From: a virus
Lineage: Duplodnaviria > Caudoviricetes
DNA length: 64,000 nucleotides
IMG/VR virus record: IMGVR_UViG_3300048502_000089
Span: 24,279-88,278 of that record
Direction: 5' to 3' (one strand)
Shown here piece after piece: positions 2 to 64,000 of the stretch (position 1 is the first letter of the stretch; each line of letters begins with the position of its first letter). The notes under the pieces were generated by a model, which ran no database searches, was not told where the DNA came from, and was given only the letters and a program-made list of their open reading frames with translations. A program made the translations under genes and the position numbers.

Positions 2-1813
2 GCGCTCGCCATCAAGACCATCTGAATGTGTAGATGCTACAGGGCTAACCAAACTCCCGCGTTGAGAAACCACAGGCTCAGCAATGTCAGCGCTTCCTCT
101 GCGCTTCTTCTGAGCACGCTTGAATCTGGTGGTCACGTTGGTATTCATATAGCGAGCTGCAGCCATGCTGTGTGAGCAGTCGTCGTGGACCTCATGGCCA
201 TTCTTCTGCCGCCAACCTTCAATGTCATCCGCGTGCCTCGAACACCGCTGGATGTCGACCCAGTAGTGACCGTCCTCGACAAGATCCTGTAGGCACGTCA
301 CTTGCGGGTCGAAGTCTCGGCCTTGAATCCACCAAACGGTCTTGAGCGGGGGCGTGTGCTCGCGCCAATCATCTCGTTGCTGGCGACCAGCCATATCCGC
401 AAAGCGGCCTGCAACGCGGAAGCCAGGAGCGATCCTGCGCCAATAGAGTTCTCGAGCGAGAACTTCATCAGCGAGTTTCGTAGCGCCAATCCCAGCCTTC
501 AGGAATTCATCGAAGGTGACATGTGATCCCTCGGGAATGATCGTGCTGCCGAATTGCACCGGCACGACGAGCGGGCCTTGCATCCACAGCACAGCACTCT
601 CAGCACCACCACCCCAGTCTGTGCCGGTCCAACACTTGCCGTACTCAGGGCGAGGTATCCATCCTTTGACGCTGAAGCGCTCGCGGAACCACGCCTCCAA
701 ATAGACACCGTCTGCCATCGGACGCCGGCACTCCATCTGTGCTTCCCAGACGAGCCGGTTGTTCTGCATGAACTTACCTTCGACATCCTCATGCGGCATC
801 CACCCACGCGAGCGAAAGAACTTACCCTTGCAGACAGAGGAAAGCGTGCGTGGATTGTCTTCACCCCATTCGCCTTTGACGATCCGATCACACTCGCACA
901 AACTATCTGGGTGTTTGCCCAATGCAGTAAGCCGTGCTCGACGATCTGGTTCAGGGACACACTGACAATTCGGTACTTCTTCCGCAGCCTCGAAAACACA
1001 ACTGCGGTAAATCTTCCACGCTGGTTTGAAGCCTGCTTCCTCCGCGTCCTCACATTCCTTGATGATCTTGGAGACAGGCCCATTGTTGGTCTTCAAAGTA
1101 GATGTACCAAAGTCTTGTGCTGCAATCCGCTCGCCAGCAATCACACTTGAGCTCGCCATGTTGCGACTCTCACTCCACACATCATCATCCATCAAATCAA
1201 CCTCATCTGCATGAACTTTATTCGGATGCGGTGAGTTGACGCCTGACTTGGAACCGACAAGAATCTCAATCTGAGAACCAGTCTTCCATTCAGTTTTCTT
1301 TCGCAGAGTGTCACCAATCTGCGGCTTCAATACTTTGCGCTGAGTACCATCGGCATCAACTGTAATCGTGTAGATAAAAGTCTTGACGTGTGTGTACGCG
1401 CGGTTCGCCTGATCCTCAATCGCGCCGAACGTACAACTCGTGCATCCGGGGCGAGTCTCAGCATTCACATAATGAACGATGCTTACCCCGAGTGTCTTTC
1501 CCATTTCACGCGAACCTACTTGAAATAGGGCACGTTCACGCTCGAAATAAGCATCAGCAATGAAGTCAAATGGAGCTTGATGGTCTGGGCAGACAGCTAT
1601 ACGCGGAATGTTATACCCGGTCTCAGCGAGGATCCAGGCATGTAGCTCATCATCCGTAGTAGGGCGTGGCCGAGATTTAGCTTTCGGCGCCGTACTTTGA
1701 TTACCTTGCAGCTTGTCAATTGCGGCAAGTACCTTGCGCCGGCCGGCATCATCGAGAGCTGGAAGCAATTGGCGAAGAGCATCAACATCAATCCCTAGCT
1801 CATTCGTCTTCAT
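2..1813 (-). CDS. terL: Terminase large subunit, partial (runs off window start)
   Basis: Absent from the ORF track, so translated by hand: open from ATG 1813 (MKTNELGIDV...) to base 2. Walker A GSREMGKT, Walker B VHADEVD, C-terminal nuclease-like DDCSHSMAAARY. Overlaps the TerS stop. Confidence 0.9.
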   Translation of the reverse strand, partial: MKTNELGIDVDALRQLLPALDDAGRRKVLAAIDKLQGNQSTAPKAKSRPRPTTDDELHAWILAETGYNIPRIAVCPDHQAPFDFIADAYFERERALFQVGSREMGKTLGVSIVHYVNAETRPGCTSCTFGAIEDQANRAYTHVKTFIYTITVDADGTQRKVLKPQIGDTLRKKTEWKTGSQIEILVGSKSGVNSPHPNKVHADEVDLMDDDVWSESRNMASSSVIAGERIAAQDFGTSTLKTNNGPVSKIIKECEDAEEAGFKPAWKIYRSCVFEAAEEVPNCQCVPEPDRRARLTALGKHPDSLCECDRIVKGEWGEDNPRTLSSVCKGKFFRSRGWMPHEDVEGKFMQNNRLVWEAQMECRRPMADGVYLEAWFRERFSVKGWIPRPEYGKCWTGTDWGGGAESAVLWMQGPLVVPVQFGSTIIPEGSHVTFDEFLKAGIGATKLADEVLARELYWRRIAPGFRVAGRFADMAGRQQRDDWREHTPPLKTVWWIQGRDFDPQVTCLQDLVEDGHYWVDIQRCSRHADDIEGWRQKNGHEVHDDCSHSMAAARYMNTNVTTRFKRAQKKRRGSADIAEPVVSQRGSLVSPVASTHSDGLDGER

Positions 1814-2342
1814 CTACGACCTCACCATCGACTTCTTCGCTATCAGGAGGTTCAACCACATCTGCGTCTGGAGGGTTCTCTTCAAGTTCAGAGACATCCA
1901 CACCAAGAACTTCAGCTAGTCGTGCCTTGAGCGCCTCGTCCAATTCCTTGCCACTCAATTTGGCTAGATCACGTTCACTCTCTCGATTGACTGAATCGAC
2001 GTAAGCGGTTGCGTCCATGAGAAGACGCATGGCATCGAGTTTGCTCTTGTCGTTGCTGGTCGAGCTCCTAATGATCTTCATCGCCTCGGCAGCAATTATT
2101 GGGGCATTTTCGCGCCCAGTCTCGGCCAAGACCTCTTGCACGCTCGCCTTTTGCCTGCGAATGCTCGCAGCCTTCGCCAACGCCCCTTGACGCCGTTGCT
2201 CTGTAGTAGAGAAGCGCCCCTCCTCCATGAGACGTAAGGCTAACTGGCGCTTTTCCTCTTTACGCTCAGGAGACCAGCCGGCTTTGCCGAACCCAGTCTC
2301 AGCTCCGTCTGGAAGGTCTGATCGGTCTATCTCTGTCGACAC
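1800..2342 (-). CDS. Probable terminase small subunit
   Basis: 180-aa helical protein with an acidic tail, directly upstream of and coupled to terL. Call is positional. Confidence 0.6.
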   Translation of the reverse strand: MSTEIDRSDLPDGAETGFGKAGWSPERKEEKRQLALRLMEEGRFSTTEQRRQGALAKAASIRRQKASVQEVLAETGRENAPIIAAEAMKIIRSSTSNDKSKLDAMRLLMDATAYVDSVNRESERDLAKLSGKELDEALKARLAEVLGVDVSELEENPPDADVVEPPDSEEVDGEVVDEDE

Positions 2343-2371
2343 TTAGCAGAGGATACCGGAATGGATAGCTA

Positions 2372-3769
2372 CTAGCCACCAGAGATGTCGGTGACGGCAA
2401 GTGCTCGCTCGAGCGCGAAATAGGCACAGAGCCACACACACGAGTTGCCAATCGCCTTCAATCTATCGGCACGCTTAGGGATCTCACGCGCTACTCGCGG
2501 CGCGACATGAAGCGGTTCGTCACCCCATCCAACCGGAGTACAGAAAGAAGTAGGCACTCGAGGGTCGGTCCACCAGAGAGGCATCCCCATCAACCACTCT
2601 ACCCATGTGGGATTGAGGCTGCCATCTGCCTGCGTTCGCAAATTGTCGCCACCAGTACGTTTATCCGAGCGCCCTGGGCCACCTGTTCCATCGGCTGTGG
2701 TCGACGCCGACCACAGCCTTTGCTCGACCTGTACGGAACCAGCGAGACCGCTGCGTGCGTGAATCCGATCGTAATTCACATTCGGCCCATCATCTTTCCA
2801 ATCTCGAGACATCGGTGACGGCCACAAGTGGCCGTCACCCGCCTGCTTGAAGTCATTGCGCGCAAGCACAGCCAATGAAGTAATCGTCTTCCGTGGCCCA
2901 CCAGCAAGACGAGACTTCATCGCCATATGTGCATCTGGAGATTTCCCATCGTCGTTAGCACAAGGGGTTGGCAGGAGCGCACCTCGCGCAGCTACAGCAT
3001 CATCAAGATCATTACTTCTTTGCTTGTCCAAAAACCTCTTCGCCTGTGGGCCTCCATGAATCCCATCTCTAGCTTGAGCGGTCGGCCAGGGCACTGGCCG
3101 ACCTTCGCCAAACAACAAAACTCCAGCCCAATAGCTCCACCCGTCTTTGCGTGTGGACTTGCACTTAGCTATCGGGACGAGTTCACTGAGTTCTTCTTCA
3201 GATGCTCTACCAGCTCGAGGGAATTTTACAGTCCATTCAAGGCCACCAGAAATCTCTCCGTACACTGGGTTCTGAGCGATACCAGCAGGACGAGCGATGA
3301 TCCAAATACGCTCACGAAGATGCGGAGCACCAACTGCAGCGGCTGGGATCACATCCCACTCGGCGTTGTAACCCATATTCAAGAGGTCACTGAGAACCAC
3401 ATCAAGACCGCGGCTACGAAGAATGGAGACATTCTCAATAAGTACGACACTAGGACTTAGCTCATCAATCACCCGTGCGAATTCACTCCACAAACCAGAA
3501 CGTGAACCTTCAATACCTGCACCCCGACCAGCTCCCGAAATGTCTTGGCAAGGGAATCCTCCTACAAGCACATCGATCTCACTGGGCACAGATTCCTCGG
3601 TCACGTCATGAACATCACTAAAGATCATCTCACCAGGAAAGCGTCTCGCAAGAACGCGCTGGCAAAATGGATCCATCTCAGCCATGAATACACCACGGCC
3701 CCCGAGCTGCTGACAGGCATACTCAAGCATCCCAACCCCTGAGAAGAGGCCACCATAGGTGAAGCTCAT
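2372..3769 (-). CDS. DNA (cytosine-5)-methyltransferase
   Basis: Motifs LFSGVG, GGFPCQ, IENV, RERIW and terminal RLKAIGNS. The variable region has repeated (W/L)PT/PS blocks and LNPTWVEWLMG. Confidence 0.95.
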   Translation of the reverse strand: MSFTYGGLFSGVGMLEYACQQLGGRGVFMAEMDPFCQRVLARRFPGEMIFSDVHDVTEESVPSEIDVLVGGFPCQDISGAGRGAGIEGSRSGLWSEFARVIDELSPSVVLIENVSILRSRGLDVVLSDLLNMGYNAEWDVIPAAAVGAPHLRERIWIIARPAGIAQNPVYGEISGGLEWTVKFPRAGRASEEELSELVPIAKCKSTRKDGWSYWAGVLLFGEGRPVPWPTAQARDGIHGGPQAKRFLDKQRSNDLDDAVAARGALLPTPCANDDGKSPDAHMAMKSRLAGGPRKTITSLAVLARNDFKQAGDGHLWPSPMSRDWKDDGPNVNYDRIHARSGLAGSVQVEQRLWSASTTADGTGGPGRSDKRTGGDNLRTQADGSLNPTWVEWLMGMPLWWTDPRVPTSFCTPVGWGDEPLHVAPRVAREIPKRADRLKAIGNSCVWLCAYFALERALAVTDISGG

Positions 3770-3778
3770 GCGGAGATT

Positions 3779-4252
3779 CTACTGCTCAGCAATCGAAGGG
3801 CCGGCAAGAGCTAATACCAAGGCGTCAGTTCGATCGCCACCACCTTTATCGATGCGACCAAACTGAATCTGTGGGTAACGCTTCTTCATCTCATCAAAAG
3901 CTTCTTGCTTGGAAAGAGCTCCATTGTCAAGTACAGCTTTGCGGGCAGATGTCACTCGAGCCTCCACCACGACGAGCCCTTTCAGCTTGCAAGCGATCAC
4001 ACTGGCGGCTTGGTAGTGGCTCACCACTCGTGTCGATTGAGCATTACGTTCGACACTGAGGAATTCGATACATGCCATATCGGGCTTGTTGATCGCTACC
4101 CACGATCGAAGCCATACGAAATACTCAGTCAATCGAGCGGGAGCTGATCCGTTCTTGGGACGATCCCAAGCATCAACTAGGAGTGGCTCCCCGTCAACAG
4201 CAAGAGCCACTCCACAGCACGACGAACTAGGGTCAATCCCAACTACTTTCAT
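3779..4252 (-). CDS. ruvC: RuvC-like Holliday junction resolvase
   Basis: VVGIDPS N-terminus, conserved IE, K-x-AV helix and C-terminal DRTDAL. Confidence 0.85.
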   Translation of the reverse strand: MKVVGIDPSSSCCGVALAVDGEPLLVDAWDRPKNGSAPARLTEYFVWLRSWVAINKPDMACIEFLSVERNAQSTRVVSHYQAASVIACKLKGLVVVEARVTSARKAVLDNGALSKQEAFDEMKKRYPQIQFGRIDKGGGDRTDALVLALAGPSIAEQ

Positions 4253-4274
4253 GCGTCAGATTCACCCGGTTGCG

Positions 4275-4556
4275 CTAGTCGCATACCTGCTCCCTGACCG
4301 CTCCGCAACGCTGGCAGCGCCTGAGCTTGCGCCCGACCGACATCACGCCACGGAGCACGTCGATCATCGGTGCCGTGTCGAAGTCGGGAACCCAAGCCTC
4401 ACCGGCCTTCCGCCACCAATGCAGGTGCAGGCGACACAGCAGCGGGCGAGGCTCACGGCGCGTCTTGAGCGTCTTGAGCGTCATCCCTTCGACCAGCTCG
4501 AAGCGCTGCCCGTACTCGCCGCCGACAACGACGATCTCACGTTCGCTTTGCCCCAT
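4275..4556 (-). CDS. Hypothetical protein with a C-terminal CxxC
   Basis: Start moved to ATG 4556, coupled to the upstream stop. Contains LCRLHLHWW and CQRCG. Confidence 0.55.
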   Translation of the reverse strand: MGQSEREIVVVGGEYGQRFELVEGMTLKTLKTRREPRPLLCRLHLHWWRKAGEAWVPDFDTAPMIDVLRGVMSVGRKLRRCQRCGAVREQVCD

Positions 4557-4813
4557 CAGGACGCTGCCTTCTGCGCGTAGATGGCGGGCATTGCCGCTTC
4601 GAGCGCGAGGTACATGCCGCCCCGCAACTCCTCGTCGTCGGGCAAGTGCTGCCACAGGAGATCCTTCAGCGCTTGGCACGCGGCGTCTACTGCTGCGGCG
4701 CAGGGCGCGGTCCCTGTGTCCTCAAGCGTCTTGTGCCACGCCGCCATTTCGGCGTGATCCGTAGCCGTGAAGCCGTACTCGTCTCGTCTGTCGTTTTGCC
4801 CCAAAGGTGTCAT
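4556..4813 (-). CDS. Hypothetical protein
   Basis: 85-aa ORF overlapping both neighbours in the operon. Confidence 0.55.
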   Translation of the reverse strand: MTPLGQNDRRDEYGFTATDHAEMAAWHKTLEDTGTAPCAAAVDAACQALKDLLWQHLPDDEELRGGMYLALEAAMPAIYAQKAAS

Positions 4814-5211
4814 TTGATCTGTCCAGTCATCTTGCGATGGCGAGCATGAATCTCTTCCCGCGTATCAAGGTGCGGGTGGTCTGGGTGATGAGGCCCGCAG
4901 TAACGATGTAGACCATCTGCCGTCTTGTACTTGCCGATCTTTGGGCACTTTGGCTCGACACAATTCACATGCCGCCACACATGGTAAGAGATTGTTACCA
5001 AACCAGCAACCAGCGTTATCTCGCCAAAATCGCTGATGATCCCTGACCACGAGTTGTAACCCTGGCAATCTCTAACTGCAACCTTTGAGCCAGCGCAATA
5101 CCCCAATGGATGGGCGAGATAGCTCGGCAGAAAACTTATCAGTAGGTAGACAAATATCCACCATAAAACCCAAACAGCAGAGAGCAACAGTAACTTAGTC
5201 CTCAGCCTCAT
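4810..5211 (-). CDS. Membrane protein with a Cys/His-rich C-terminus
   Basis: Two hydrophobic segments, then CVEPKC and YCGPHH. Start moved to ATG 5211. Confidence 0.6.
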   Translation of the reverse strand: MRLRTKLLLLSAVWVLWWIFVYLLISFLPSYLAHPLGYCAGSKVAVRDCQGYNSWSGIISDFGEITLVAGLVTISYHVWRHVNCVEPKCPKIGKYKTADGLHRYCGPHHPDHPHLDTREEIHARHRKMTGQIK

Positions 5212-5393
5212 CAGAACATCACCTTCCTCCACCGACGCAAATCATCGTCACTGTACCTCTGAAACATAAGCGCATGGGCATCGAACGTTGGCACACGCCA
5301 AGAGATCCCCCACCGCTTCCCTGGCTGGAGATAGATACTCAGCAGCGCTCTAGGCTTCTTGGATGAATCTTTATGTATATGAATGGCGATCAT
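5211..5393 (-). CDS. Hypothetical protein
   Basis: 60-aa ORF coupled to both neighbours. Confidence 0.45.
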   Translation of the reverse strand: MIAIHIHKDSSKKPRALLSIYLQPGKRWGISWRVPTFDAHALMFQRYSDDDLRRWRKVMF

Positions 5394-7072
5394 CCCTCGC
5401 CATCCTTCGTCATCCAGCGCGTCATCTGCCGAGACGCGCGCTCGACATCGCGGTGGTAGTTGCCCTGCAATACCTTCATCTTCCTGATTGTCTTCTTGAC
5501 ATTCTTCACAGCTTCCTCGTACTGCTGTACCTGCGGGTCACGAGCAACTCGTGCGGATCGCTGAGACTCTGTGAGTTTCTTGCCATCCTCATTGACTGGG
5601 ACAGCTTCTTCAGCCGTGAGCTCGGCGCCCTTGAGCAACTTCTCGAGATCATCGAGCATGTCTTCCTCATGGGTAATCACAAGGCCGATACGACTTTCGA
5701 CAGCATGAAAACGCGCATGAAGTGAGTAAATCTCTTCGCGCGTACACTTGCTCATATCAGCCGGCATCCGCGGAGGATCCTCGATGTCATCGGGAAGCGG
5801 GAACTTCTCCTTCTCAACAAGAGCATCGAAATGAGCCTTCGCATCACGGCTGGCTTCATCAGGCACATGAAGCGGAGCTGCTGGGGCAGGAGGTTGAGCA
5901 ACCACCGCTGCGACTTCCTCCGCGACCGCAACCTGCGCCTCTGGTGCAGCCGCTACAGGCGCAGGAGTAGATACGGCTGCGGCTGGTACATCAGCCGGTG
6001 GAGAGAACGCAGCATCCGCAGGCGCAGCTTCGACCGCCTGTGCAGCACTCGCTGCAGCTTCCTCAGCAATTGTCTGAGGCTGTGCTGGCGCGGGCGCTGG
6101 CACATTAGCCTCGTCTAGCGCTCGAGCAGCTAGCAGCTCTTCGCGCGTCACGCCCTGCCCGGTGGGATTGTCCACCATGAAGCGAAGTTCGTTGTCACCG
6201 ATCTTCATGACATCCTGCCGGCCACGACCATAGATTTTCAGCAGTGGCCCAGTGACTTTCCCTTCAAGCTCTTCACGTTCCGCTGAAAGTCCAACACTCG
6301 TCGGCGCAGCATTTGGCACCGGAGTAGGCGGTGGCACAATAGGAGCACTAGAAGCTGGAGGGACCACCATGCGCGTCGTCTCAATCGATTCCTGCACTGG
6401 AGTTGGCTCCTCTGTAGCTGATGCCTCTTGACGTGGTGCTGGTGTTGGATGCTCGATCACCCATCGTAGAGCCTCGGTCGACATTGATGCAATCTCAGAC
6501 GGATCGATCTGATGAGCACGCATAATCGGGAAGGTCAATTGATCCTCGAGCGCCTGACGCTCAGCAGGGTCTTCCTCGGCAGCTTCCACGGGAGCGGTCT
6601 CTGCAACAGCTTCCGCAACTGGTGCTGTAACGCCACCTAGAGAAGTCGCATCTTCTGCCATTAGTCCCCGGCTCTTGAGTTCGGCATACACGTTAGCAAG
6701 TTCTGTAGAGACATCTGAGCCAGATGCCGCAGTTGCTTCGAGTGAACCTGTGATCTTGAGTAGAACATCATCAGCAATGGCCGACATCGTCGACGCATTC
6801 TCTTCTGTTGTAGCCACAATACCTCCTTCATTGATCTGATTCATATCCACTTCAGCAATAGACAGGACTGCGATTACATCGACATCCCGATTGCCTGCTT
6901 TGAAAGCTTGGTCCGCCATACCCACAAGCATCTGTGCTGCCTCCAGACGAGCCTTTGGATCTGGCGGTAATTGGCCATCTACATCCAGCTCGAATAGACC
7001 ACGATTGACTGCCTCAGTGAGAATCGTGTCAGCCTGATACTCAGTGAGCGTTGGTACGAGGCGCTCAGGCAT
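5390..7072 (-). CDS. Multidomain protein with Ala/Pro-rich linkers, a duplicated ~42-aa module and a C-terminal UvsY-like domain
   Basis: C-terminal KLTESQRSARVARDPQVQQYEE...DVERASRQMTR resembles phage recombination-mediator-like coiled coils. Lies near recA. Confidence 0.5.
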   Translation of the reverse strand: MPERLVPTLTEYQADTILTEAVNRGLFELDVDGQLPPDPKARLEAAQMLVGMADQAFKAGNRDVDVIAVLSIAEVDMNQINEGGIVATTEENASTMSAIADDVLLKITGSLEATAASGSDVSTELANVYAELKSRGLMAEDATSLGGVTAPVAEAVAETAPVEAAEEDPAERQALEDQLTFPIMRAHQIDPSEIASMSTEALRWVIEHPTPAPRQEASATEEPTPVQESIETTRMVVPPASSAPIVPPPTPVPNAAPTSVGLSAEREELEGKVTGPLLKIYGRGRQDVMKIGDNELRFMVDNPTGQGVTREELLAARALDEANVPAPAPAQPQTIAEEAAASAAQAVEAAPADAAFSPPADVPAAAVSTPAPVAAAPEAQVAVAEEVAAVVAQPPAPAAPLHVPDEASRDAKAHFDALVEKEKFPLPDDIEDPPRMPADMSKCTREEIYSLHARFHAVESRIGLVITHEEDMLDDLEKLLKGAELTAEEAVPVNEDGKKLTESQRSARVARDPQVQQYEEAVKNVKKTIRKMKVLQGNYHRDVERASRQMTRWMTKDGEG

Positions 7073-7308
7073 CAGAAGTCAGACGCATCCCTTCTACTTG
7101 CCATGTCTTCAGCGTAAAACTTCTCTCGGTCCACACGCCTTACTAGGATTTCGACCTCTTCACCTTCCTCGAACGGATGGCCATCATCCTCGATGTACTC
7201 TGGATCAACTGCGATCTCAATGTAACCCCCATCAGGGGTGTCCCGATGAATGGTCTGATTGAAATACGTCGAGTCTCCGCGAGTCTTCCATACTCCTTTC
7301 CAACTCAT
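7072..7308 (-). CDS. Small acidic hypothetical protein
   Basis: ATG 7308 overlaps the upstream TGA (ATGA coupling). Confidence 0.55.
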   Translation of the reverse strand: MSWKGVWKTRGDSTYFNQTIHRDTPDGGYIEIAVDPEYIEDDGHPFEEGEEVEILVRRVDREKFYAEDMASRRDASDF

Positions 7309-8369
7309 TTCACACCCCATCTCCTCAAGACCGCAGCGCGTGTCTTGGCGTAGTCGTAATCTGGACGGATCTTCTTCGCCCCGGCGATCACGTTGGACTC
7401 CTCAAGCTTCTTGACCTTGCCGGTGTAATCAGCTTTACATCCAAGCGCTTTGAATTCACAGTATTGGCATGGAGTGACTGACCACTTTGCCTTCTCCTTC
7501 TCCCGCGGATGCTCAGGGATCTCGCCAGCAAGGAATGCCTCCCGATACTGAGTTAGCTTCTCACGGCCAGCAGCCATCATCTCTTCATCGAGACTGACGT
7601 AGTAGCTGACGGTCGTCAGAGGCTCCTCACGAGAGCTATAGATCAGAGTGCCATCGTCAGGAGCATCAAGTGTGATCTTGATTTGGTCACAAGCGAAGTT
7701 CTCATGAATTGGACACCACAGCATCGGACTATCAGGGAGAATCGGTCGCAAGATCGCCCAAGAACTTTCACACAGCGTCACTGTCGGACAGAACTGAGAC
7801 TCATTAGACAATGAGATGTAAGTCTTGATCTGTCGCAAATACTTCTCGTGGAGCTTGGGCGTCTCGTTGTGATCATTCTTCATCGCCATGACCTTCTCGT
7901 GGCTCGTCGTCTTCACCTCAACACAATGGCTCTTACGCCAAAACATCGGAAGAATGATCGCATCACTGGCACCAGTAAGCCAATGCTCACGGTCAACGAA
8001 CCCTGTCTGGAAATCATCGCCGGCTGTCTGGTCTGCACTCAACAGCACGCCTTCTGCTGCAAAGCGACGAATCCAGTCGAGCTCAAGATTCTTCCCGAGA
8101 TCGAACCATGCGCGCAGCCGCGGCTCAATCGGAGAAGTCTCTGGGAGGCCCATCAATCCATAAACGGCAGCTCGAGCACAGGCGTAAGGATCATCACCCG
8201 GAAATTTCGACGCATGAAAAGAAGTAAACCACGGAGATCCATGCGGAGAATCCCCTAGACCTTCCCGCCACGCACGTTCCTCTTCGCGCTGATAGGCCGT
8301 AATGAGAATCGGTTCTACAATCGAAACACCCGAAATCTCATTCCACAATGCAATTCTGCTAAGTCCCAT
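7305..8369 (-). CDS. Cas4/AddB-like PD-(D/E)xK exonuclease
   Basis: HASK...CAR, GASDAII, VEVKT, YLRQIKTY and C-terminal PCQYCEFKALGC (iron-staple-type cysteines). Adjacent to recA. Confidence 0.85.
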   Translation of the reverse strand: MGLSRIALWNEISGVSIVEPILITAYQREEERAWREGLGDSPHGSPWFTSFHASKFPGDDPYACARAAVYGLMGLPETSPIEPRLRAWFDLGKNLELDWIRRFAAEGVLLSADQTAGDDFQTGFVDREHWLTGASDAIILPMFWRKSHCVEVKTTSHEKVMAMKNDHNETPKLHEKYLRQIKTYISLSNESQFCPTVTLCESSWAILRPILPDSPMLWCPIHENFACDQIKITLDAPDDGTLIYSSREEPLTTVSYYVSLDEEMMAAGREKLTQYREAFLAGEIPEHPREKEKAKWSVTPCQYCEFKALGCKADYTGKVKKLEESNVIAGAKKIRPDYDYAKTRAAVLRRWGVK

Positions 8370-8416
8370 CGTGCCTCTGCTCCGATAGTCGCGTTTCTAT
8401 GATCATAGCTCTGAAA

Positions 8417-9520
8417 TCAATTTCCCGCAAGCATCGCATTGAGAATCACTGCAGCGAGCGCCGGCTCTGCATCAATGCGCTCGCGCAAACCACTCATCCC
8501 TTGCACCTTGTCCTTGTCATCACCGAGGATGCGATACCAGGAACTCTTCGCGCCGGTCTTCTCAGCGATCGGTGGTCGCCCAGTCCTAATCGCTACACCA
8601 CCATCCTCATCGAAGAACGTTGCGGCATCAAGCAGCTCGAATAGAGTGTCAAACTTGAAGGTATTCAAGTCAAGACGCATCCGAGCTACACGGAATGGGC
8701 GGCAAACACGGCTCTTATTCACACGCACCACCACTTCAATCCCATCTGCTTCCTTCTGTCCTGCTGGCCCGGTGCCAACTTCAACAGCGATCTTCTCATC
8801 GGTCTCGAGATAGCCGCCCTTGGGGTGGTAGTAGAGCCAAGATCCCTTGCGGAAGTGAAGGCTCATCGATGACCGGAACTCAAGCGACTTGCCACCGAGC
8901 GCGAATTCCTGCTTGGTTGTCTGGTCACGAGAAGAGTGATCGATAATGACCAGTGCATTCTCGTCCTTATCGAGAGAGTTGTGAATGCGTTTGATCGCTC
9001 GCTTCCACGCTCGGGCGTCCATCGCGCGAGTCCAGTCCTCAGCTTCGTTCGCCAACTCATCTACACAGACGGCTGCCGATGCACTATCGATCACATGGAC
9101 ATGGCATGATTTCAGGAGTGTCTCCATCTCGCGGGCGATGTCCTCGATGATCGTAACTTGCTCGAGCAGCATTCTCTTGGTATCCACGCCGAGATTCGCA
9201 GCGTGCTTCGCGTCCCAAATCTTCTCGACATTCCAGTAAGCCGCCTCAAGCCCATTCGGAAATGACTCTGACCGTAAAGCCTGTGCCGCTGCAATGATGA
9301 TATATGCAACATGCGTCTTCCCGGTGCTTGGGTCTCCCCAAAGACGAGTTATCCTGCCAAGTGGAATACCACCGGAAGTGATTCGCATGAGCGACGGTGA
9401 TGGCAAAGGGATTCGATCAACTGGTGCCTCCTCATCGCCGCGACCAATTGCGTCTATGCCACGGCGTTCACGGATTGCAGCTAGGTCATCATCCAAAGTG
9501 GAAACGTCTACGGGACTCAT
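8417..9520 (-). CDS. recA: RecA/UvsX-like recombinase
   Basis: GGIPLGRITRLWGDPSTGKT (Walker A), VIDSASA (Walker B), GGKSLEFRSSMSLHF. Confidence 0.92.
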   Translation of the reverse strand: MSPVDVSTLDDDLAAIRERRGIDAIGRGDEEAPVDRIPLPSPSLMRITSGGIPLGRITRLWGDPSTGKTHVAYIIIAAAQALRSESFPNGLEAAYWNVEKIWDAKHAANLGVDTKRMLLEQVTIIEDIAREMETLLKSCHVHVIDSASAAVCVDELANEAEDWTRAMDARAWKRAIKRIHNSLDKDENALVIIDHSSRDQTTKQEFALGGKSLEFRSSMSLHFRKGSWLYYHPKGGYLETDEKIAVEVGTGPAGQKEADGIEVVVRVNKSRVCRPFRVARMRLDLNTFKFDTLFELLDAATFFDEDGGVAIRTGRPPIAEKTGAKSSWYRILGDDKDKVQGMSGLRERIDAEPALAAVILNAMLAGN

Positions 9521-12500
9521 ACGGCCTCCTGCAGTTGGTTCGAGCGTTGCTGCTCTATGAATTCATCCATTGCCATCGCGTTGGTCGCTATGACACCACC
9601 TCGATCATCTTTGCGCCCACGCAGCAGGATCATCTTTTCGTCTATGTGTGACGATGTAATAAGTCCCTGCATCGAAGACCACGCATCTGGAAAGAGAGTG
9701 ATACGCCACGAATCAAGTTCGAGCGAGACAGTAAGGAAAGCCATCTCTTGCCCAGACTGTCGACCACGCTTCACTGTCGTCTTCTTGATCTCGGTGATGC
9801 TTCCTCCAATGATCACATCTGCGCCATCCTCGAGTTCTTCCACTTCCTGCTCGGTGTAGACGTTCTCCCAGATCAACGGTGCGTCAGCACCTAGCAATCC
9901 TCCCGGCTCGAGTGCCACACCTAGCAGCTCGAGCTCAGCCTTCGCACGCTCAATCGGCTCCCACATACCGCGCATCCCAAAGCAGTCTAGGACGCCGGCA
10001 TTGACTAGCTTCTCTCGAGCACCCTTGTTGACCTTGCTGTACTTGCGGGATGACCTAGTCTCGAAGTCCTCGTAAGAGAGGAATGGTCGGTCAGCGATGA
10101 TCTGCGCTCCTGCGGCTGGACCAACTCCCTTGACACTGGCAAGACCATATCGCAGAGCATTGATCTCATGTTCAACTGTGAACCCTGTCTTCGAGATATT
10201 GATGTCGGGCGGCAGCACTTTTACATCGAAGTGTCGTGACTCGCGCGTGGCTGCCAAAGCCAATTCGCTATCAGTCGTCAAGAGAGCTGAATAGAAATGT
10301 GTCGCGTAGTAGCACTTGAGCCACGCATCTTGGTACGCCTGAATAGCATACCCAGTCGCGTGCGCCCTATTGAAAGAATTATGTGACACGATGCCGTTCG
10401 CAATGAAGTTATGTTCATCACTGGCCATCGACACGTCGAATACCTCTTCTTCACCAACATACTCGATACTAACAATCGCATCAAGATCCGTTGGCAATCC
10501 GCGCGACCAACGGACATGCCTCTCACCCTTTGCGTAATCAAACGCCTTGTGGTGAGAGTTACAAAGGTGCAACAAATTGCTAGCCGTGTGATATCGAGCA
10601 TATTCACCACCCATCTGCTCAAGTGAAGCTACGTGTGCGAACTCAAGTGAATGCTTGCTCCCATCACTACATTGGCCACAATATTCACAGTAGCCACCCG
10701 ATCGTTCTGCAACCTCTTCCTTGGCCACACGCAGCAGTTCAGTACGCCCATCGAGCCATGCTGGATTCTCCCATCCACTTGGCACACCTAAACCGCCGTC
10801 TTGACCTGTATACCTTTTCCCGATCGCGCGCTCCGTAGTGACTCCAACCATCTCCTTGGGCGCCTCTTGACCAACCACAACAAGGCAATCCCCTACTCGG
10901 AGATCGCAAACAGTGTGGTATCCATCGTCAGTAAGGAGACGATGATTAGATGTAGCTCGGAGCAAACGGCCAGCAGTAGTCTTGATCTCATAAACAGCGC
11001 GTACCCCATTGCTCCATACACGAATAGCACGAGATGGACGGACGCGGCCATCAGCATCCATCGCAAGCAATGTGACCCCGCGCGAGCGCAGCTTCTTGCC
11101 GACCGAAGTCTTCGAGACCCACGCCGCTGCCAAATCACGCAAAGTAGTCTCTTGTTCGCAGTGTGGGCCGGATGCACCACGAATAACCACCGTATCCCCT
11201 GACAAACAGTACCCAGTAAATGGGACGATGTCTGCCCATAGACGCTCAGCTACTTCCGCACCAAACTTCTCCGTGGCCGCTGCAACGAATTCACCCTCAC
11301 GTAGAGCAAGCCGGCGTCGGCCTTCCTGACTATGCGCACGATTGAGTTTGTCGATCTCTTTGCGCACATCGTCTGCTTGCCCTGCGCTGTATCCCAAAAT
11401 GACTTGGAAAATCCCCATCACACTCTCTTGAAACGGCATCACTCCATAGGTTTCGCCAAGAAGATCCTCAAGTTCCTTTGGCACAGACCATTCCTCTTCC
11501 CCATTCTTACGCTTGGCGTATGACCACGGAGCGCCACCACCGATCGGTCCTGGGCGGTAGAGAGCATTAGCTGCAGCGAGGTCGATGAGATTCTCAGGGC
11601 GAAGCTGGCGCAGGAATGAAGTGATGTTCGAGCTGCCGAACTGATTGACTCCAAGAGTGTGTCCATCTTGGAATACACGCATCACTTTCGGATCCACGTC
11701 GTATGGATCGGACAGAGCTGAAAGTGAATCAAGATCAATCTCTTCTCCAGTAACTTCACGGATAGAGTCAATCGCCATCGCTTGCCGAGCAATCCCTGCC
11801 AACCCAAGCACATCGATCTTGAGGAATCCATAGTCGTCACAGATGGAGATCAATGGAGTCTCTGACCATGCTGTGCGATACCCAGGCTCGTCCTCACTCG
11901 GTCGCACCACCGGAAGATAGTCAGTTAGCTTACCAGGGACAATGACGACACCGCCAGCGTGCTTTGACATCCTCGAAACGAAAGAGTCACCTTTGTTTTC
12001 AAGTCGTACTGCGTGCTTCCATACTTCTGGGTAATCATTCGCCCATGCGTCGAGAGTCGGCATCCGCAGACGCATTTCCTCAAGATCACGATCTTGTACG
12101 GGATCGATGAGAGCAACCACATCCTTGGTCCGCTTATAGTCAACACCACCAATAATTCGAGAGACATCATTGATAGCTGCTCGAGGCTGGTAGGTGGAGT
12201 AAGACACCACATCTGTCACTGACTCGCGGCCATGCTTACGGACCAGATATTCCTTGCACTCAAGTCGCCGGTTGTAGCCTTCGATCTTCACTGACTCGAA
12301 ATCGAGATCGATGTCTGGGATACCCTTGCGCCCTGGATTCATGAACCGCTCGAACTTGAGCTTGTGCGCGATCGGGTCGACACCTGTAATACCCGAGAGA
12401 TAACAGACAAGCGATCCTGCTGCAGACCCTCGCCCCGCGCCTAGACGGATAGGCTTCTTCCGTGGAAGGTCATGTTCATCTTTAGATGGCGGCAACGGAG

Positions 12501-13602
12501 CATCTGACTTCGCCCACCGAACCAGATCACCTACGATCCACATATAGGAGAAGTTGTTCCGAGAGCGGATGATGGATAGCTCATACTCGAGCTGCTTCTC
12601 GTAGCGCTCATCACCTTCCTTGCCAATCCGCTTCATCCCTTCTCGGCACCAAGCGATCAACTCCTGCTCTGGATCAATGCCGGCTGGGAGTTGAGGCATC
12701 TTCAGCGCGCGGTCAGTGATATACGGTTTGACCATCCTTGCCACATCTAGCGTCGTCGCAATCGCTCGATCAACCACTTGCTCGCCAAGGTTCGGGTGAT
12801 ATTGCAGGAAGCGCTCTCGCACTTCATCACCGGCCATCAGATGAAGTCCTTCGTGGCCGAGCTCGTAAATCTCTTCACCATTGGCTAGGCGCTCTTTGTT
12901 CTTTGCCGCGGCCTCTGCAATCGTGGTGTTGGTCCCGATCAATGCAACGATCTTTTGCGTACTCGCCCAATCGGGAAGAACGTAATGCGAGTCGACTGTC
13001 GCGTAGTAACCAAATCCTCTGCGATTAGCCAACGAGACGAGCTCGAGATTTAGATCACGCTGACGATCCCAATCATGCGGCATGATCTCTACGAAGAATC
13101 GCTCACCGAATATCTTCAGTGCTTGATCAATGAAATCGTCCACGGCTGCATCTGTACCGTTCTCGAGCAAGAAGGCCACCGGCCCGAGCGCACAGGAGGC
13201 TGTACAGATCAAACCCTCATGGTTTTGCTCGAGCAGTTCCCAGTCCACACATGGAGATTGGTACATACCGGAATGGAACGCCTCACTGGTGATCTTGATG
13301 AGGTTGTGCCATCCCTTGAGGTTGATCGCCAAGAGAATCAGATGCCAGCGCCGGAAGCGCCAGTCTGCTTCACGCACCAATCGATTAGGGCGCCAGTATG
13401 ACTCAACTCCTTGGATCGGAATGATGCCATATTGTTCACACGCCTTCAGATGCTTCAGGGCTCCATTGATATTACCGTGATCAGTTTGAGCTAAATAGGG
13501 TTGACCTAAATCTGCTGCCCTTGCAGCAAACTGAAATGCTGTTCCAGCCCCATCCAAAGCACTGTGGTCAGAATGGCGATGTAGGTGAACGAAATCAATC
13601 AT
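9517..13602 (-). CDS. dnaE: DNA polymerase III alpha subunit (DnaE type) containing an intein
   Basis: PHP domain HLHRHSDHSALDG and TDHG, GRGSAAGSLV, PDIDLDF, SKHAGGVV, KIDVLGL, SFNRAHATGYA, C-terminal OB fold. Confidence 0.97.
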   Translation of the reverse strand: MIDFVHLHRHSDHSALDGAGTAFQFAARAADLGQPYLAQTDHGNINGALKHLKACEQYGIIPIQGVESYWRPNRLVREADWRFRRWHLILLAINLKGWHNLIKITSEAFHSGMYQSPCVDWELLEQNHEGLICTASCALGPVAFLLENGTDAAVDDFIDQALKIFGERFFVEIMPHDWDRQRDLNLELVSLANRRGFGYYATVDSHYVLPDWASTQKIVALIGTNTTIAEAAAKNKERLANGEEIYELGHEGLHLMAGDEVRERFLQYHPNLGEQVVDRAIATTLDVARMVKPYITDRALKMPQLPAGIDPEQELIAWCREGMKRIGKEGDERYEKQLEYELSIIRSRNNFSYMWIVGDLVRWAKSDAPLPPSKDEHDLPRKKPIRLGAGRGSAAGSLVCYLSGITGVDPIAHKLKFERFMNPGRKGIPDIDLDFESVKIEGYNRRLECKEYLVRKHGRESVTDVVSYSTYQPRAAINDVSRIIGGVDYKRTKDVVALIDPVQDRDLEEMRLRMPTLDAWANDYPEVWKHAVRLENKGDSFVSRMSKHAGGVVIVPGKLTDYLPVVRPSEDEPGYRTAWSETPLISICDDYGFLKIDVLGLAGIARQAMAIDSIREVTGEEIDLDSLSALSDPYDVDPKVMRVFQDGHTLGVNQFGSSNITSFLRQLRPENLIDLAAANALYRPGPIGGGAPWSYAKRKNGEEEWSVPKELEDLLGETYGVMPFQESVMGIFQVILGYSAGQADDVRKEIDKLNRAHSQEGRRRLALREGEFVAAATEKFGAEVAERLWADIVPFTGYCLSGDTVVIRGASGPHCEQETTLRDLAAAWVSKTSVGKKLRSRGVTLLAMDADGRVRPSRAIRVWSNGVRAVYEIKTTAGRLLRATSNHRLLTDDGYHTVCDLRVGDCLVVVGQEAPKEMVGVTTERAIGKRYTGQDGGLGVPSGWENPAWLDGRTELLRVAKEEVAERSGGYCEYCGQCSDGSKHSLEFAHVASLEQMGGEYARYHTASNLLHLCNSHHKAFDYAKGERHVRWSRGLPTDLDAIVSIEYVGEEEVFDVSMASDEHNFIANGIVSHNSFNRAHATGYAIQAYQDAWLKCYYATHFYSALLTTDSELALAATRESRHFDVKVLPPDINISKTGFTVEHEINALRYGLASVKGVGPAAGAQIIADRPFLSYEDFETRSSRKYSKVNKGAREKLVNAGVLDCFGMRGMWEPIERAKAELELLGVALEPGGLLGADAPLIWENVYTEQEVEELEDGADVIIGGSITEIKKTTVKRGRQSGQEMAFLTVSLELDSWRITLFPDAWSSMQGLITSSHIDEKMILLRGRKDDRGGVIATNAMAMDEFIEQQRSNQLQEAV
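10378..11208 (-). mobile_element. Intein (277 aa) with an HNH-type endonuclease, inside dnaE
   Basis: Begins FTGY|CLSGDT, has block B TSNHRLLT, ends HNFIANGIVSHN|S. Central CEYCG...EFAHV...NLLHLCNSHHKAFD is an HNH signature. Confidence 0.92.
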
Positions 13603-13618
13603 GTGACACGTTCACCCA

Positions 13619-20013: not shown

Positions 20014-20332
20014 GCATCTACCGCGAATTCAGCTAAATACATCGCCGCTTGTGAGGCTCATCGGATCGCCGCGAGACACATTGCGATCCCAACGAGAGCC
20101 GCGGCCCAATTGATCATATCTGGCTAGTCGTCCTCGTCAGCACCCAGGATCGTCTCCTCTCGTTACCAACCGAGGCTGAGCGCTACAGGCACACCCTGTA
20201 GGCAGGCGGGCACCTATAGATGGTGATACGACAGAAGCAAGCGGAGTTTCCGGCTAGTTCAGAGAATTACTTTTTCTGATTCCATCGCACGCGCGTAATG
20301 GGAACCTTTTGTCCAAAACGCAAGTGATTGGG

Positions 20333-20356
20333 TTAGCAGAAATGATTCGATGCTAA
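20333..20356. promoter_or_regulatory. Dyad motif TTAGCA-N12-TGCTAA (copy A)
   Basis: TTAGCAGAAATGATTCGATGCTAA, intergenic. Closely matches the copy at 63749. Confidence 0.65.
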
Positions 20357-59345: not shown

Positions 59346-59600
59346 TCAAAGAATACGACTACTCGCTCTCGGCTTTACTGGGAGCGCCGGCCGACGTGGA
59401 GCTCGAGCTGCAGCTTGGAGTGCTCGAGTAGCTGTGGAGATCGCTCGAGCCTGCCGGCTAGACCGCGCAGAAGAAAAAGGATATACCTGTGATGCAAACT
59501 CCCAAGGATATACCTGTGATGCAAACTCCCATGCGCCAGGGTCAATCACCTTCGCCGCGGCCTCGATCGCCTCCTTGTCCATTCTCATACGCTCAGCCAT
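59346..59600 (-). CDS. Hypothetical protein with a duplicated WEFASQVYP
   Basis: 84-aa ORF carrying an exact 27-bp tandem duplication. Confidence 0.45.
   Translation of the reverse strand: MAERMRMDKEAIEAAAKVIDPGAWEFASQVYPWEFASQVYPFSSARSSRQARAISTATRALQAAARAPRRPALPVKPRASSRIL
59478..59531. repeat. 27-bp exact tandem duplication
   Basis: AGGATATACCTGTGATGCAAACTCCCA x2. Confidence 0.95.
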
Positions 59601-61438: not shown

Positions 61439-61512
61439 TCGGGATGGCTGGATTTGAACCAGCGGCCTCCTGCTCCCAAAGCAGGCGCGCTACCAAGCTG
61501 CGCTACACCCCG
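61439..61512 (-). tRNA. trnP: tRNA-Pro (UGG), CCA not encoded
   Basis: CGGGGTG/CATCCCG acceptor stem, D arm GCGC-AGCTTGGTA-GCGC, anticodon loop TTTGGGA, T loop TTCAAAT. Confidence 0.95.
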
Positions 61513-63177: not shown

Positions 63178-63212
63178 CTTGAGACTCTCCTCTCAGCTCT
63201 CGAGCAGTTTAG

Positions 63213-63323
63213 CGTTGGCGCCGGGAGGAATCGAACCCCAGTGAGTCCACGGAAGCGCGCCGTATCGAACCCACCATCCGCGCCGATGACCCTATCCGCC
63301 TCAACGGGCTACTCGACGCCAAC
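63213..63323 (-). ncRNA. Non-canonical tRNA-like RNA
   Basis: Terminal stem GTTGGCGTCG/CGGCGCCAAC, D-like arm, long central arm, T loop GGGG-TTCGATT-CCTC, promoter directly upstream. Confidence 0.6.
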
Positions 63324-63330
63324 GAACTCG

Positions 63331-63360
63331 AGCCTAGCAAAAGCTCGCATCCTAAGTCAA
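63331..63360 (-). promoter_or_regulatory. Promoter for the tRNA-like RNA and early genes
   Basis: TTGACT-N18-TAGGCT, 7 nt before the RNA 5' end. Confidence 0.7.
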
Positions 63361-63489
63361 GCATTCCCTCGAGCAGCTTTGACGCTCTGGGCCACCCCGC
63401 TCGAACACGCGCGGAGTACGGCCGGCCGAATACCTCGAGGATACGGCGCGACCGCAGGTTTCAGCGTTCTCGCATCCCAGAGCTACTCG

Positions 63490-63518
63490 AGCCTACCAAA
63501 TCCCAAATCCACGCGCAA
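63490..63518 (-). promoter_or_regulatory. Early-type promoter
   Basis: TTGCGC-N17-TAGGCT, followed by CGAG as in the neighbouring promoter. Confidence 0.55.
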
Positions 63519-63706
63519 GGGAGCCGGCGAACCACACATCATCGTTTTTTCTTTCTGAGCCATCTCCCTCGAGAGACCCCCAAGAGTGCTGACGATGCTG
63601 ACGAACTTCTCGAGCAAAATCCCAAAATCTCAAATCACGCCCAGAGAAATCTCTCCCGTAGGTTCCACCAGCCCCTACCCCTACCCCCTCCATCCATAGG
63701 TAGGTG

Positions 63707-63772
63707 TTAGCAGTCATTCCATTAGTGCTAATTCATAAGTGCTAATCGTTAGCAGCCATGAATCGTTGCTAA
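63707..63772. promoter_or_regulatory. Cluster of TTAGCA/TGCTAA dyad sites
   Basis: TTAGCA-N13-TGCTAA (63707), TTAGTG-N12-TGCTAA (63722), TTAGCA-N12-TGCTAA (63749). Confidence 0.65.
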
Positions 63773-64000
63773 CAGCTAGTCCTCGAGGCGGCAATTCGCT
63801 TGGGCGACGACATGTGCAGCCGAGCTGTATGTGGCGATTGTATGTGCTCGCTCTTGATGTACGAGCTCTGACGGCATGTGCTCGCTACCATCCGGCCCTT
63901 CCTGGGCCGCGGCGCCGGCAAAGGGGCAGACCCCTAGGGGTGCTTGCGGATTAGTTATCCGCAGTCGGTCCAACGAGTACTCTGCGTTGATACCACTGCT

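Follow-up and report, generated by a model that had tools for sequence, protein, structure and literature searches.

The genome of this uncultured soil phage carries an excess of the palindrome CTCGAG that is real and specific to the word, and that is found in all reading frames as well as in the spacers between genes. The initial annotation had arrived by hand at about 110 sites against about 19 expected from composition; within the window (the whole stretch of 64,000 nucleotides that was analysed) there are 114 exact copies, the first at 451 and the last at 63787, and base composition (order 0) predicts 17.9. The complete phage record of 88,278 bp holds 140, or one per 640 bp. Expectations for the window rise with the order of the model, to 30.3-30.5 at order 1 or after dinucleotide shuffling (0 of 100 shuffles reach 114), 32.2 at order 2, 55.6 at order 3, and 84.3 at order 4 (5-mer Markov). 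Under this last model CTCGAG ranks first among the 4096 hexamers (z 5.4), and it is the top over-represented hexamer under every null applied.

A pure coding artefact, arising from Leu-Glu abundance, codon usage, codon-pair bias, or TCGA richness, would be the simplest source of such an excess. CTC leads among the Leu codons and GAG among the Glu codons, the spelling CTC GAG accounts for 54% of the coding sites, TCGA is itself enriched 1.24 times, and the 5-mer Markov model cuts the excess to 1.35 times. However, Leu-Glu pairs are not enriched (145 versus 133; 46% of them are spelled CTCGAG), and when synonymous codons are shuffled within genes, the coding DNA of the whole genome yields 42±5.5 sites versus the 123 observed (z 15, top hexamer). 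Both spellings singled out in the initial annotation exceed this shuffle, Leu-Glu as CTC GAG standing at 66 versus 29 and xCT CGA Gxx (the GCT CGA G type) at 42 versus 10; the remaining frame, xxC TCG AGx, stands at 15 versus 3. Frames 1 and 2 are up 4-5-fold and the spacers 6-fold, with 14 sites versus 2.2 expected in non-coding DNA outside a left terminal block described below. Outside that block the density is 1.79 per kb in non-coding and 1.77 per kb in coding DNA, and core and accessory genes are equally enriched (6.4 and 6.6 times). The excess is 5.5-fold by composition, falling to 2.9-fold when the codon null is used. A frame-aware 5-mer Markov model raises the coding expectation to 95 (versus 123), but the remaining NTCGAG words are not enriched and CTCGA without the following G is only 1.26 times up. 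Codon usage or Leu-Glu content as a full explanation is refuted by the shuffle, by frames 1 and 2, and by the spacers; TCGA or 5-mer bias fails as well, and a coding artefact is very unlikely.

The initial annotation also stated that phages usually lose restriction-type palindromes. This genome has almost none of about 27 hexamer palindromes or of TTAA, and strongly avoids runs of G, runs of A, and CCWGG-type words, with CTCGAG running the opposite way; GCCGGC is likewise enriched instead of lost. Avoidance on this scale might funnel synonymous choice into CTCGAG as a side effect of some 50 forbidden words. Monte Carlo synonymous swaps that never add any of 50 avoided words nevertheless give 42±6 CTCGAG versus 123, and 38±4 GCCGGC versus the 95 observed, which refutes the side effect and leaves it next to no probability. 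The excess outlasts codon, TCGA/5-mer, and purge-aware corrections.

Many sites had been described as extending to GCTCGAGC. In the window 22 do so, but the 28 copies counted are the number predicted by independent flanks, and the octamer is no separate unit. G precedes 46% of sites at -1, and positions beyond ±1 are uninformative, which rules out a longer repeat, a mobile element, or an extended motif. Spacing is random outside one block (CV 1.03 versus 0.99 for Poisson), and the profile along genes is flat, with no preferred position inside genes or at their ends. Local clusters are listed in Table 1. The eight sites previously placed in about 600 bp at the right end were recovered by exact counting; two of them (63609 and 63782) sit in the terminal repeat and duplicate left-end genome sites. 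The placement of CTCGAG directly after two -10 boxes is also borne out, TAGGCTCGAG occurring twice behind TTG...-35-like words. As a promoter element CTCGAG was rejected: TTG...TAGGCTCGAG occurs nowhere beyond these two right-end copies, and not once in the complete relative G001.

Table 1. Features of the window, with coordinates in the window.
Feature	Position	Strand	Basis or detail
Dispersed CTCGAG sites, n=114	451..63787	.	exact-word count
C5 cytosine DNA methyltransferase, 465 aa, PF00145	2372..3769	-	motifs I-VI in residues 7-159
ThyX-like gene, densest coding cluster, 7 CTCGAG versus 1.4 from own codons	13619..14452	-	codon null
Three CTCGAG 21 bp apart in a short imperfect 21-bp tandem repeat	59402..59449	.	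sequence
tRNA-Pro(TGG), up to 90% identical to Thermoleophilia tRNA-Pro, weak host clue	61439..61512	-	
Right-end hot spot, 8 CTCGAG in 589 bp versus ~1 at genome density	63199..63787	.	count
Promoter-like TTGACT-N18-TAGGCT, -10 running into CTCGAG (TAGGCTCGAG)	63327..63341	-	sequence
Second TAGGCTCGAG copy, 94% repeat of the first, 159 bp apart	63486..63500	-	sequence
Direct terminal repeat, ~398 bp, right copy (= genome 26-423)	63578..63975	+	sequence repeat
Library adapter, reverse complement of AAGCAGTGGTATCAACGCAGAGTAC, not phage DNA	63976..64000	.	sequence

The excess is common to three related phages. G001 (complete, 95 kb, 59.6% GC) has 123 CTCGAG versus 30.6 by composition and, in coding DNA, 113 versus 56±6 by the codon null, which is about 2-fold and holds in all frames; L240 has 28 versus 6.9 expected, and L002 has 9 versus 4.1. 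A megablast search returned no close cultured relative. The capsid protein has no more than 32% identity to the capsids of Gordonia phages, across 40% of its length, and a search with it of 185,579 species genomes gave no prophage relatives. The choice of CTCGAG at 48 Leu-Glu pairs conserved between this phage and G001 is made independently in each (24/6/11/7, Fisher p 0.19), and the aligned genes hold about 32 sites in frames 1 and 2, of which only 2 are shared. The 46% of all aligned sites that the two phages share (one genome pair, hence low power) arises because each genome independently prefers CTCGAG, and positional conservation was rejected in favor of this parallel preference. As judged from these alignments, individual sites turn over between relatives and are not conserved.

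The left terminal block of 10.5 kb (~12% of the genome) has neither CTCGAG nor GAGCTC, and the rest is rich in both. Judged by the codons it uses, the block simply lacks enrichment (0 versus ~3), and its composition is wholly different, with use of the rare Leu codon CTA. This early block is syntenic and nearly free of CTCGAG in both complete phages, whose early genes are otherwise mostly unrelated. The sharp split in composition between this block and the rest implies that the responsible force is not uniform along one DNA molecule, which argues against a simple replication-linked mutation bias.

The phage C5 methyltransferase, whose own gene holds 4 CTCGAG sites, had been proposed, among other candidates, to maintain the word. 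Its long target-recognition region matches nothing characterised among homologs or in the PDB, and its IMG/VR matches have only the catalytic core in common. G001 has no ortholog (a different, 224-aa C5-methyltransferase-like ORF lies elsewhere) and keeps its codon-corrected excess, so the 465-aa enzyme would not be required and the proposal in that form is not supported. A wider version, that the 465-aa enzyme or a host orphan C5 methyltransferase targets CTCGAG as a methylation-linked, HIP1-like palindrome and that selection keeps methylatable sites for protection, epigenetic timing, or nucleoid structure, is improbable. It would fit a unit that is an exact hexameric palindrome, the C5-methyltransferase-like gene in both complete phages, and the normal purging of CTCGAG from phage contigs: across 67 viral contigs with C5-methyltransferase genes (66 unrelated, plus L002), the median observed/expected ratio is 0.24 and 28 contigs have no site at all. 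Because the word is usually purged, 140 tolerated sites suggest protection or a lack of restriction. However, the two phages' methyltransferase genes are non-orthologous and lie in different modules, the sites lack positional conservation, and the word whose level follows the 465-aa enzyme is GCCGGC, at 2.9 times the codon null in this phage (G000) and 1.45 times in G001 (a sample of one). A deamination/Vsr signature is absent too. Vsr-type repair was rejected because the single-transition neighbors of CTCGAG are at or above expectation (CTTGAG 34 versus 27, CTCAAG 47 versus 33, TTCGAG 40 versus 31, CTCGAA 24 versus 25.5).

Homologs of the phage histone-like protein P0121 (36-52% identical, E 5e-13 to 3e-30; two cover the C-terminal half only) are present in 8 of 8 Solirubrobacterales/Thermoleophilaceae/Thermoleophilia genomes, one of which (G016) is unpublished, and in 0 of 5 Gaiellales and 0 of 12 other Actinomycetota genomes; in other phyla, 4 of 25 genomes give weak partial matches only (E 4e-8 to 3e-3). 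In a CRISPR-spacer host search of 151 Thermoleophilia, tRNA-Pro alone scored. The small-genome Thermoleophilia with the best tRNA match were rejected as hosts, having no P0121 homolog and a poor palindrome-profile match. This one gene, together with weak clues, points to probable hosts among the Thermoleophilia (Solirubrobacterales/Thermoleophilaceae). Among the palindromes of the candidate-host genomes CTCGAG holds first or second place, with 1.6-2.0 copies per kb (4.75-6.1 times composition), a density like that of the phage, and the CTC GAG pair is 1.5-2.1 times over the codon null. XhoI-family nucleases occur in 5 of 151 sampled Thermoleophilia, and the 3 of these 5 with counts are CTCGAG-poor (0.35-0.62 per kb). 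Palindrome profiles of candidate hosts and phage correlate at rho 0.36-0.66, GC is 68-73% versus 55%, and the host-rich palindromes CGATCG and GAGCTC are not matched by the phage. The candidate-host excess, moreover, lies almost wholly in frame 0, in contrast to the phage; since the frame patterns differ, simple mimicry is insufficient. The initial annotation would have given up its proposal for an excess equal to host background together with no methylation or binding at the site; on the first of these points, the density does equal that of the candidate clade.

We favor, at about an even chance, the reading that CTCGAG is a favored DNA word of the phage lineage, host-clade-like, unrestricted, and raised at the DNA level, and that its sites are not individually functional. 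The hosts would write Leu-Glu by preference as CTC GAG and would seldom encode XhoI-type nucleases, so that CTCGAG could escape the purge of the ~27 other palindromes. The word would also be continuously raised, by a context-specific mutation or repair bias or by weak selection on density, and this upward push would not need the phage C5 methyltransferase. Two further points count against the favored-word reading: the exact 6-bp palindromic unit suggests recognition by a dimeric protein over generic mutation bias, and the left block has no sites, where a uniform bias should have acted too.

It is also conceivable, though we think it improbable, that CTCGAG is a word for a DNA-processing machine and that density rather than position is selected: a Chi-like signal that restrains a host helicase-nuclease on phage DNA in linear or concatemeric form, or a word at which the phage FtsK/SpoIIIE-like ATPase or histone-like protein would load or bind. 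The sites are enriched in density, at random positions and whatever the frame, and the word is abundant in candidate hosts, which would fit a host-read signal; the phage encodes RecA-like, RuvC-like, FtsK-like, and histone-like proteins, and the early block is nearly site-free in both phages, as if compartmented. Against this, the FtsK-like protein matches E. coli FtsK (1355 positions) only up to about position 1261 and stops short of the gamma domain that reads sequence, with no Ftsk_gamma found, and the known Chi, KOPS, and SRS words are asymmetric. A role in RNA, with CUCGAG as a self-complementary pairing or processing word, would suit a genome that is transcribed, spacers included, almost wholly in long one-directional operons. 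Because the palindrome is the same in either transcript, strand cannot separate a DNA-level from an RNA-level signal; however, the lack of positional preference, the equal genome-wide density in candidate hosts, and the fact that no structure or nuclease is implicated make an RNA role highly doubtful. More generally, CTCGAG (with GCCGGC here) may be a word selected for its density and recognised by a DNA-processing or methylating protein of host or phage in a compartmented genome, an idea we hold only tentatively and consider unlikely. If true, HIP1 or Chi would have a hexameric counterpart carried by a phage, with a syntenic early module kept word-free (and using CTA) and the rest word-rich in two phages.

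Phage genomics usually regards short palindromes as losses. Here one genome has both signs, ~27 palindromes having been erased and one or two actively accumulated at synonymous and non-coding positions. To our knowledge very few phages of Thermoleophilia have been described, and the CTCGAG pattern could mark host range, as a word abundant in this little-studied class. The 88-kb genome would also offer a small, recodable system in which to study how iterated palindromes are maintained, which is an open question for HIP1 as well. A literature search for a reported excess of CTCGAG or GCTCGAGC found nothing relevant.

Several known systems can be compared. Similarity of oligonucleotide usage between phage and host underlies k-mer host prediction, and CTCGAG fits this in being equally dense in, and the first- or second-ranked palindrome of, the candidate clade; the phage differs in having ~15% lower GC, in using frames and spacers that candidate hosts hardly use, and in not copying other host-rich palindromes. 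The first-step-transfer DNA of T5 lacks sites present elsewhere in the T5 genome, much as the terminal block here lacks CTCGAG and GAGCTC, but this block is only unenriched for its codons and differs wholly in composition. The polar Chi and KOPS words have strand skew, whereas a palindrome has no orientation. Dcm/Vsr very-short-patch repair, which raises CCWGG in enterobacteria, is an established example of how a methyltransferase target gains excess; its hallmark, depletion of T:G-derived neighbors, is missing for CTCGAG. Restriction-site avoidance in phage genomes (Rusinov et al. 2018, PMC6286503) is matched by the near loss of ~27 palindromes and TTAA, but CTCGAG and GCCGGC have the opposite sign. 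Finally, an octamer is the unit of the cyanobacterial highly iterated palindrome HIP1 (GCGATCGC), which exceeds expectation 15-300-fold, keeps its positions from one genome to the next, and recurs with periods of 10-90 kb (Xu, Lawrence & Durand 2018, PMC5861425). In both cases an exact short palindrome is raised in every frame and between genes. The resemblance seen in the initial annotation holds for this all-frame and non-coding enrichment, but not for the scale of the excess (15-300-fold, with at least roughly one site in each gene) or for conservation: CTCGAG is a hexamer raised 3-6-fold, its sites turn over and are Poisson-spaced in a genome too short, at 88 kb, for 10-90 kb periods, and its carrier is a phage. 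CTCGAG is best read as a mild analogue of HIP1, not a member.

The window contains 114 copies of the palindrome CTCGAG, close to the roughly 110 sites tallied by hand in the initial annotation, and the whole phage genome (G000) contains 140. Markov expectations for the window are 17.9, 30.3, 32.2, 55.6, and 84.3 sites at orders 0, 1, 2, 3, and 4, respectively, and all 100 dinucleotide shuffles stay below 114. Even under the 5-mer model, the most conservative null, which conditions on 5-mers that are inflated by CTCGAG itself, CTCGAG is the most over-represented of the 4096 hexamers (z 5.4). When synonymous codons are shuffled within genes (the codon null), 42±5.5 sites are expected in coding DNA; 123 are present (z 15), and CTCGAG is again the top hexamer. 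All three reading frames are raised (66 versus 29, 42 versus 10, and 15 versus 3), and this split is unchanged (45/22/10) when only the 51 genes with a frame confirmed by a homolog in a relative are counted. The reported excess thus survives both the Markov and the codon corrections. Leu-Glu pairs are not over-used (145 versus 133), and 46% of them are spelled CTCGAG; 42 of the 268 occurrences of the Arg codon CGA lie within CT-CGA-G. Outside an early block at the left of the genome, non-coding DNA contains 14 sites versus 2.2 expected, a density of 1.79 per kb compared with 1.77 per kb in coding DNA. The enrichment is real and specific to the word, and it lies at the level of the DNA (or of the transcript).

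The enriched unit is the hexamer. Further information is present only at position -1/+1 (G/C, 46%), the octamer GCTCGAGC is found in 28 copies, which is the number expected from independent flanks, and the remaining NTCGAG words are not enriched. None of the single-mismatch neighbours of CTCGAG is depleted, and the enrichment is not Vsr-like. The sites are randomly placed, with Poisson spacing (CV 1.03) and a flat profile along genes. At the right end, where about 8 sites in about 600 bp had been noticed, the local excess is real, with 8 sites within 589 bp, 2 of them terminal-repeat duplicates. As for the CTCGAG noticed directly after two -10 boxes, two sites of this cluster overlap TAGGCT -10-like hexamers. 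In the window, a 27-bp sequence is also duplicated perfectly in tandem (2.0 copies), adjoining a 21-bp repeat that holds three CTCGAG sites.

Of the 64 hexamer palindromes, about 27 hardly occur in the same genome, among them CAGCTG, AGATCT, TCGCGA, GCATGC, CACGTG, GACGTC, GGGCCC, CCCGGG, TCCGGA, ACGCGT, and TTCGAA. TTAA is found once in G000 coding DNA versus 104 expected (0-5 versus 27-32 in relatives), the non-palindromic CCGAAG/CTTCGG is nearly absent (1 versus 11-27), and G runs, A runs, and CCWGG-type words are also avoided. The loss of TTAA and of CCGAAG/CTTCGG may point to a host with an MseI-like system and a Type IIS/III or BREX-like target. GCCGGC is a second enriched palindrome (95 sites where the codon null gives 33, with every frame raised; 74 sites in the window and 103 in the genome); the other three CCGG-core hexamer palindromes (ACCGGT, CCCGGG, and TCCGGA) are absent. 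One explanation would be that this purge funnels codon choice into CTCGAG. However, when synonymous swaps are barred from adding any of 50 avoided words, only 42±6 CTCGAG and 38±4 GCCGGC sites result. The enrichment of CTCGAG is therefore positive and specific, rather than an artefact of the purge.

Three relatives were recovered through the capsid protein: G001 (IMGVR_UViG_3300048818_000230; 95 kb, complete by CheckV, 59.6% GC), the 13.8-kb fragment L002, and L240, which lies in the 97.7-kb contig OCZT010000045.1. G001 shares about 68% nucleotide identity with G000 across 31 kb and 63% amino-acid identity across 51 genes. CTCGAG exceeds expectation in all three (123 versus 30.6, 9 versus 4.1, and 28 versus 6.9, respectively), and all are nearly without TTAA; the enrichment is lineage-wide. 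By the codon null, G001 has 113 sites versus 56±6, again with every frame raised (82/45.5, 12/3.6, and 19/7.1). In nucleotide alignments, 24 of 52 aligned G000 sites are also CTCGAG in G001, compared with 13% identity for the average hexamer. Positional constraint was considered for this sharing and rejected: the G000 by G001 table of CTCGAG use at 48 conserved Leu-Glu pairs (24/6/11/7) gives a Fisher p of 0.19, and of the roughly 32 sites that lie in frame 1 or 2 of aligned genes, the two phages have only 2 in common. Several GCT-CGA-GC sites of G000 are aligned with GCG-CGC-GC in G001. Sharing reflects a parallel preference, and thus the excess is continuously replenished as sites turn over.

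A phage C5 methyltransferase had been proposed to maintain the site. The phage METHYLTRANSFERASE is a 465-aa enzyme whose C5 motifs are canonical and whose long recognition region contains repeated PTP-type motifs; its closest relatives are unnamed metagenomic proteins (≤52% identity), and its PDB matches are confined to the catalytic core. An ortholog is absent from G001, which carries a 224-aa C5-methyltransferase-like ORF in a different module, and an N4/N6 enzyme (PF01555) was found in neither phage. Because G001 has the excess without this ortholog, the excess does not depend on the 465-aa gene, and the proposal is not supported. The sole word that tracks the enzyme is GCCGGC, at 2.9x the codon null in G000 versus 1.45x in G001, a sample of one; on this basis, GCCGGC may be guessed as the enzyme's target. 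Among 67 IMG/VR contigs (≥8 kb) chosen for C5-methyltransferase genes (66 unrelated contigs plus L002), the median observed/expected ratio for CTCGAG is 0.24, with no sites in 28 and more than 2.8-fold excess in five. Phage contigs usually purge CTCGAG, and a minority accumulate it. A strong excess of some other palindrome, CGATCG above all, is common in this set.

The window corresponds to bases 24279-88278 of one virus record of 88,278 bp. The library oligonucleotide AAGCAGTGGTATCAACGCAGAGTAC (a SMART-type adapter) is present at both ends of the record, and a direct terminal repeat of about 398 bp, with one mismatch and one indel, lies just inside the adapters. This suggests that the record is a complete linear genome, and its termini look like true physical ends. 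Gene calling gave 116 genes (88% coding). The set is of siphovirus type (a 2461-aa tape measure, Dit, and a major head protein) and encodes a DnaE-type polymerase with an HNH insert, a DnaB-like helicase, a primase, and RecA-like and RuvC-like proteins, as well as a ThyX-like protein, the C5 methyltransferase, an FtsK/SpoIIIE-like ATPase, an Xer-like tyrosine recombinase, and one tRNA-Pro. No close cultured phage was found, megablast gave no match, and the top protein matches are actinophage proteins (29-32% identical). The ATPase has alpha and beta domains, with no gamma domain detected; together with the nearby recombinase it may form a dimer-resolution or plasmid-prophage module. A 627-aa ORF, which has no Pfam or PHROG match, is possibly the large terminase. 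This ORF and the portal-like ORF lie about 50 kb away from the capsid/tail genes.

Coordinates of features in the phage genome and the window
Feature	Genome	Window or locus	Strand	Remarks
Adapter, left	1-25
Adapter, right		window 63976-64000
Terminal repeat	26-423 = 87856-88253
Early left block	430-10900	L208, left of window	+	10.5 kb, 19 small genes
FtsK/SpoIIIE-like ATPase	11109-12149	L208	+	kept in G001
Xer-like tyrosine recombinase	13331-14389	L208	+	kept in G001
P0121, histone-like	20225-20644	L209:225-644	-	coiled coil, Lys/Ala-rich linker, KRGRPAGS, winged helix
Portal-like ORF	20723-24223		-	1166 aa
627-aa ORF	24208-26091	window 2-1813	-	upstream of portal-like ORF
C5 methyltransferase		window 2372-3769	-	465 aa
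27-bp tandem duplication		window 59477-59531

Apart from the terminal repeat, the early left block is free of CTCGAG, where the genome rate predicts about 15 sites and the codons of the block itself about 3. GAGCTC is missing as well; the block is rich in CTAG, CGCG, and GCGC, and it retains both the general purge and an excess of GCCGGC. The rare codon CTA accounts for 32% of Leu codons in the block versus 8% elsewhere, and Leu-Glu is written CTAGAG in 6 of 14 cases. In the syntenic block of G001 (48.8-55 kb, locus L005), which adjoins the FtsK-like gene, CTCGAG falls to 0.31 versus 1.44 per kb, and CTA makes up 19% versus 5% of Leu codons. The signature is common to both phages though only 2 of the 19 genes are homologous. 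Its conservation suggests translational or entry-order compartmentation. Outside the block, enrichment is 6.6x in accessory versus 6.4x in core genes, and density peaks, at 3 sites per kb, in the small genes of the opposite end.

The best host clue is the histone-like protein P0121, which points toward Thermoleophilia. Among 50 named genomes picked up by a pattern scan, homologs are present in 8 of 8 from Solirubrobacterales, Thermoleophilaceae, or Thermoleophilia (36-52% identical, E 5e-13 to 3e-30; six span nearly the whole protein and two only the C-terminal half), in 0 of 5 Gaiellales, and in 0 of 12 other Actinomycetota; in other phyla, 4 of 25 genomes have weak partial matches (E 4e-8 to 3e-3) and nothing stronger. 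(One of the eight, G016, is an unpublished genome; the claim holds without it.) Weaker support comes from the tRNA-Pro, whose identity with Thermoleophilia copies reaches 90%, an Rv2525c-like glycoside-hydrolase domain, and actinophage-like replication and capsid genes. Comparison with candidate hosts, as proposed initially, reveals a matching density: in four P0121-positive genomes (GC 68-73%), CTCGAG ranks first or second among over-represented palindromes, at 4.75-6.1x composition and 1.6-2.0 per kb, equal to the density of the phage. The frame pattern differs, however. In these four, CTCGAG is 1.5-1.9x the codon null, nearly all in frame 0; the CTC-GAG pair is 1.4-2.1x and GAGCTC about 1x. 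Their palindrome profiles correlate with that of the phage at rho 0.36-0.66. Across 121 sampled Thermoleophilia, density spans 0.09-2.8 per kb. XhoI-family nucleases (PF04555) are found in 5 of 151 sampled genomes, and the three such genomes with counts are low in CTCGAG (0.35-0.62 per kb).

A protein that reads CTCGAG would fit the exact palindromic unit, the frame-1, frame-2, and spacer excess that is not present in the candidate hosts, and the early block free of the word; we consider a methylation-linked reader unlikely, and a Chi-like one improbable to the same degree. We favour another reading, that CTCGAG is common in the host, escapes the purge, and is raised further, and give it about an even chance. 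The lineage would infect Thermoleophilia, where the word is common and rarely restricted and CTC-GAG is a preferred codon pair; having escaped the purge, CTCGAG would then be increased by context-specific bias or weak density selection.

A literature search found no published report of such CTCGAG enrichment. A 4.5-Mb Deinococcales MAG (G003, locus L128) contains 28,914 CTCGAG versus 9 GAGCTC sites. This is an extreme iteration of CTCGAG together with a near-total loss of its half-swapped partner, and it confirms that iteration far stronger than that in the phage exists elsewhere. In HIP1, the iterated palindrome of cyanobacteria, sites are conserved; the CTCGAG sites of the phage instead turn over.
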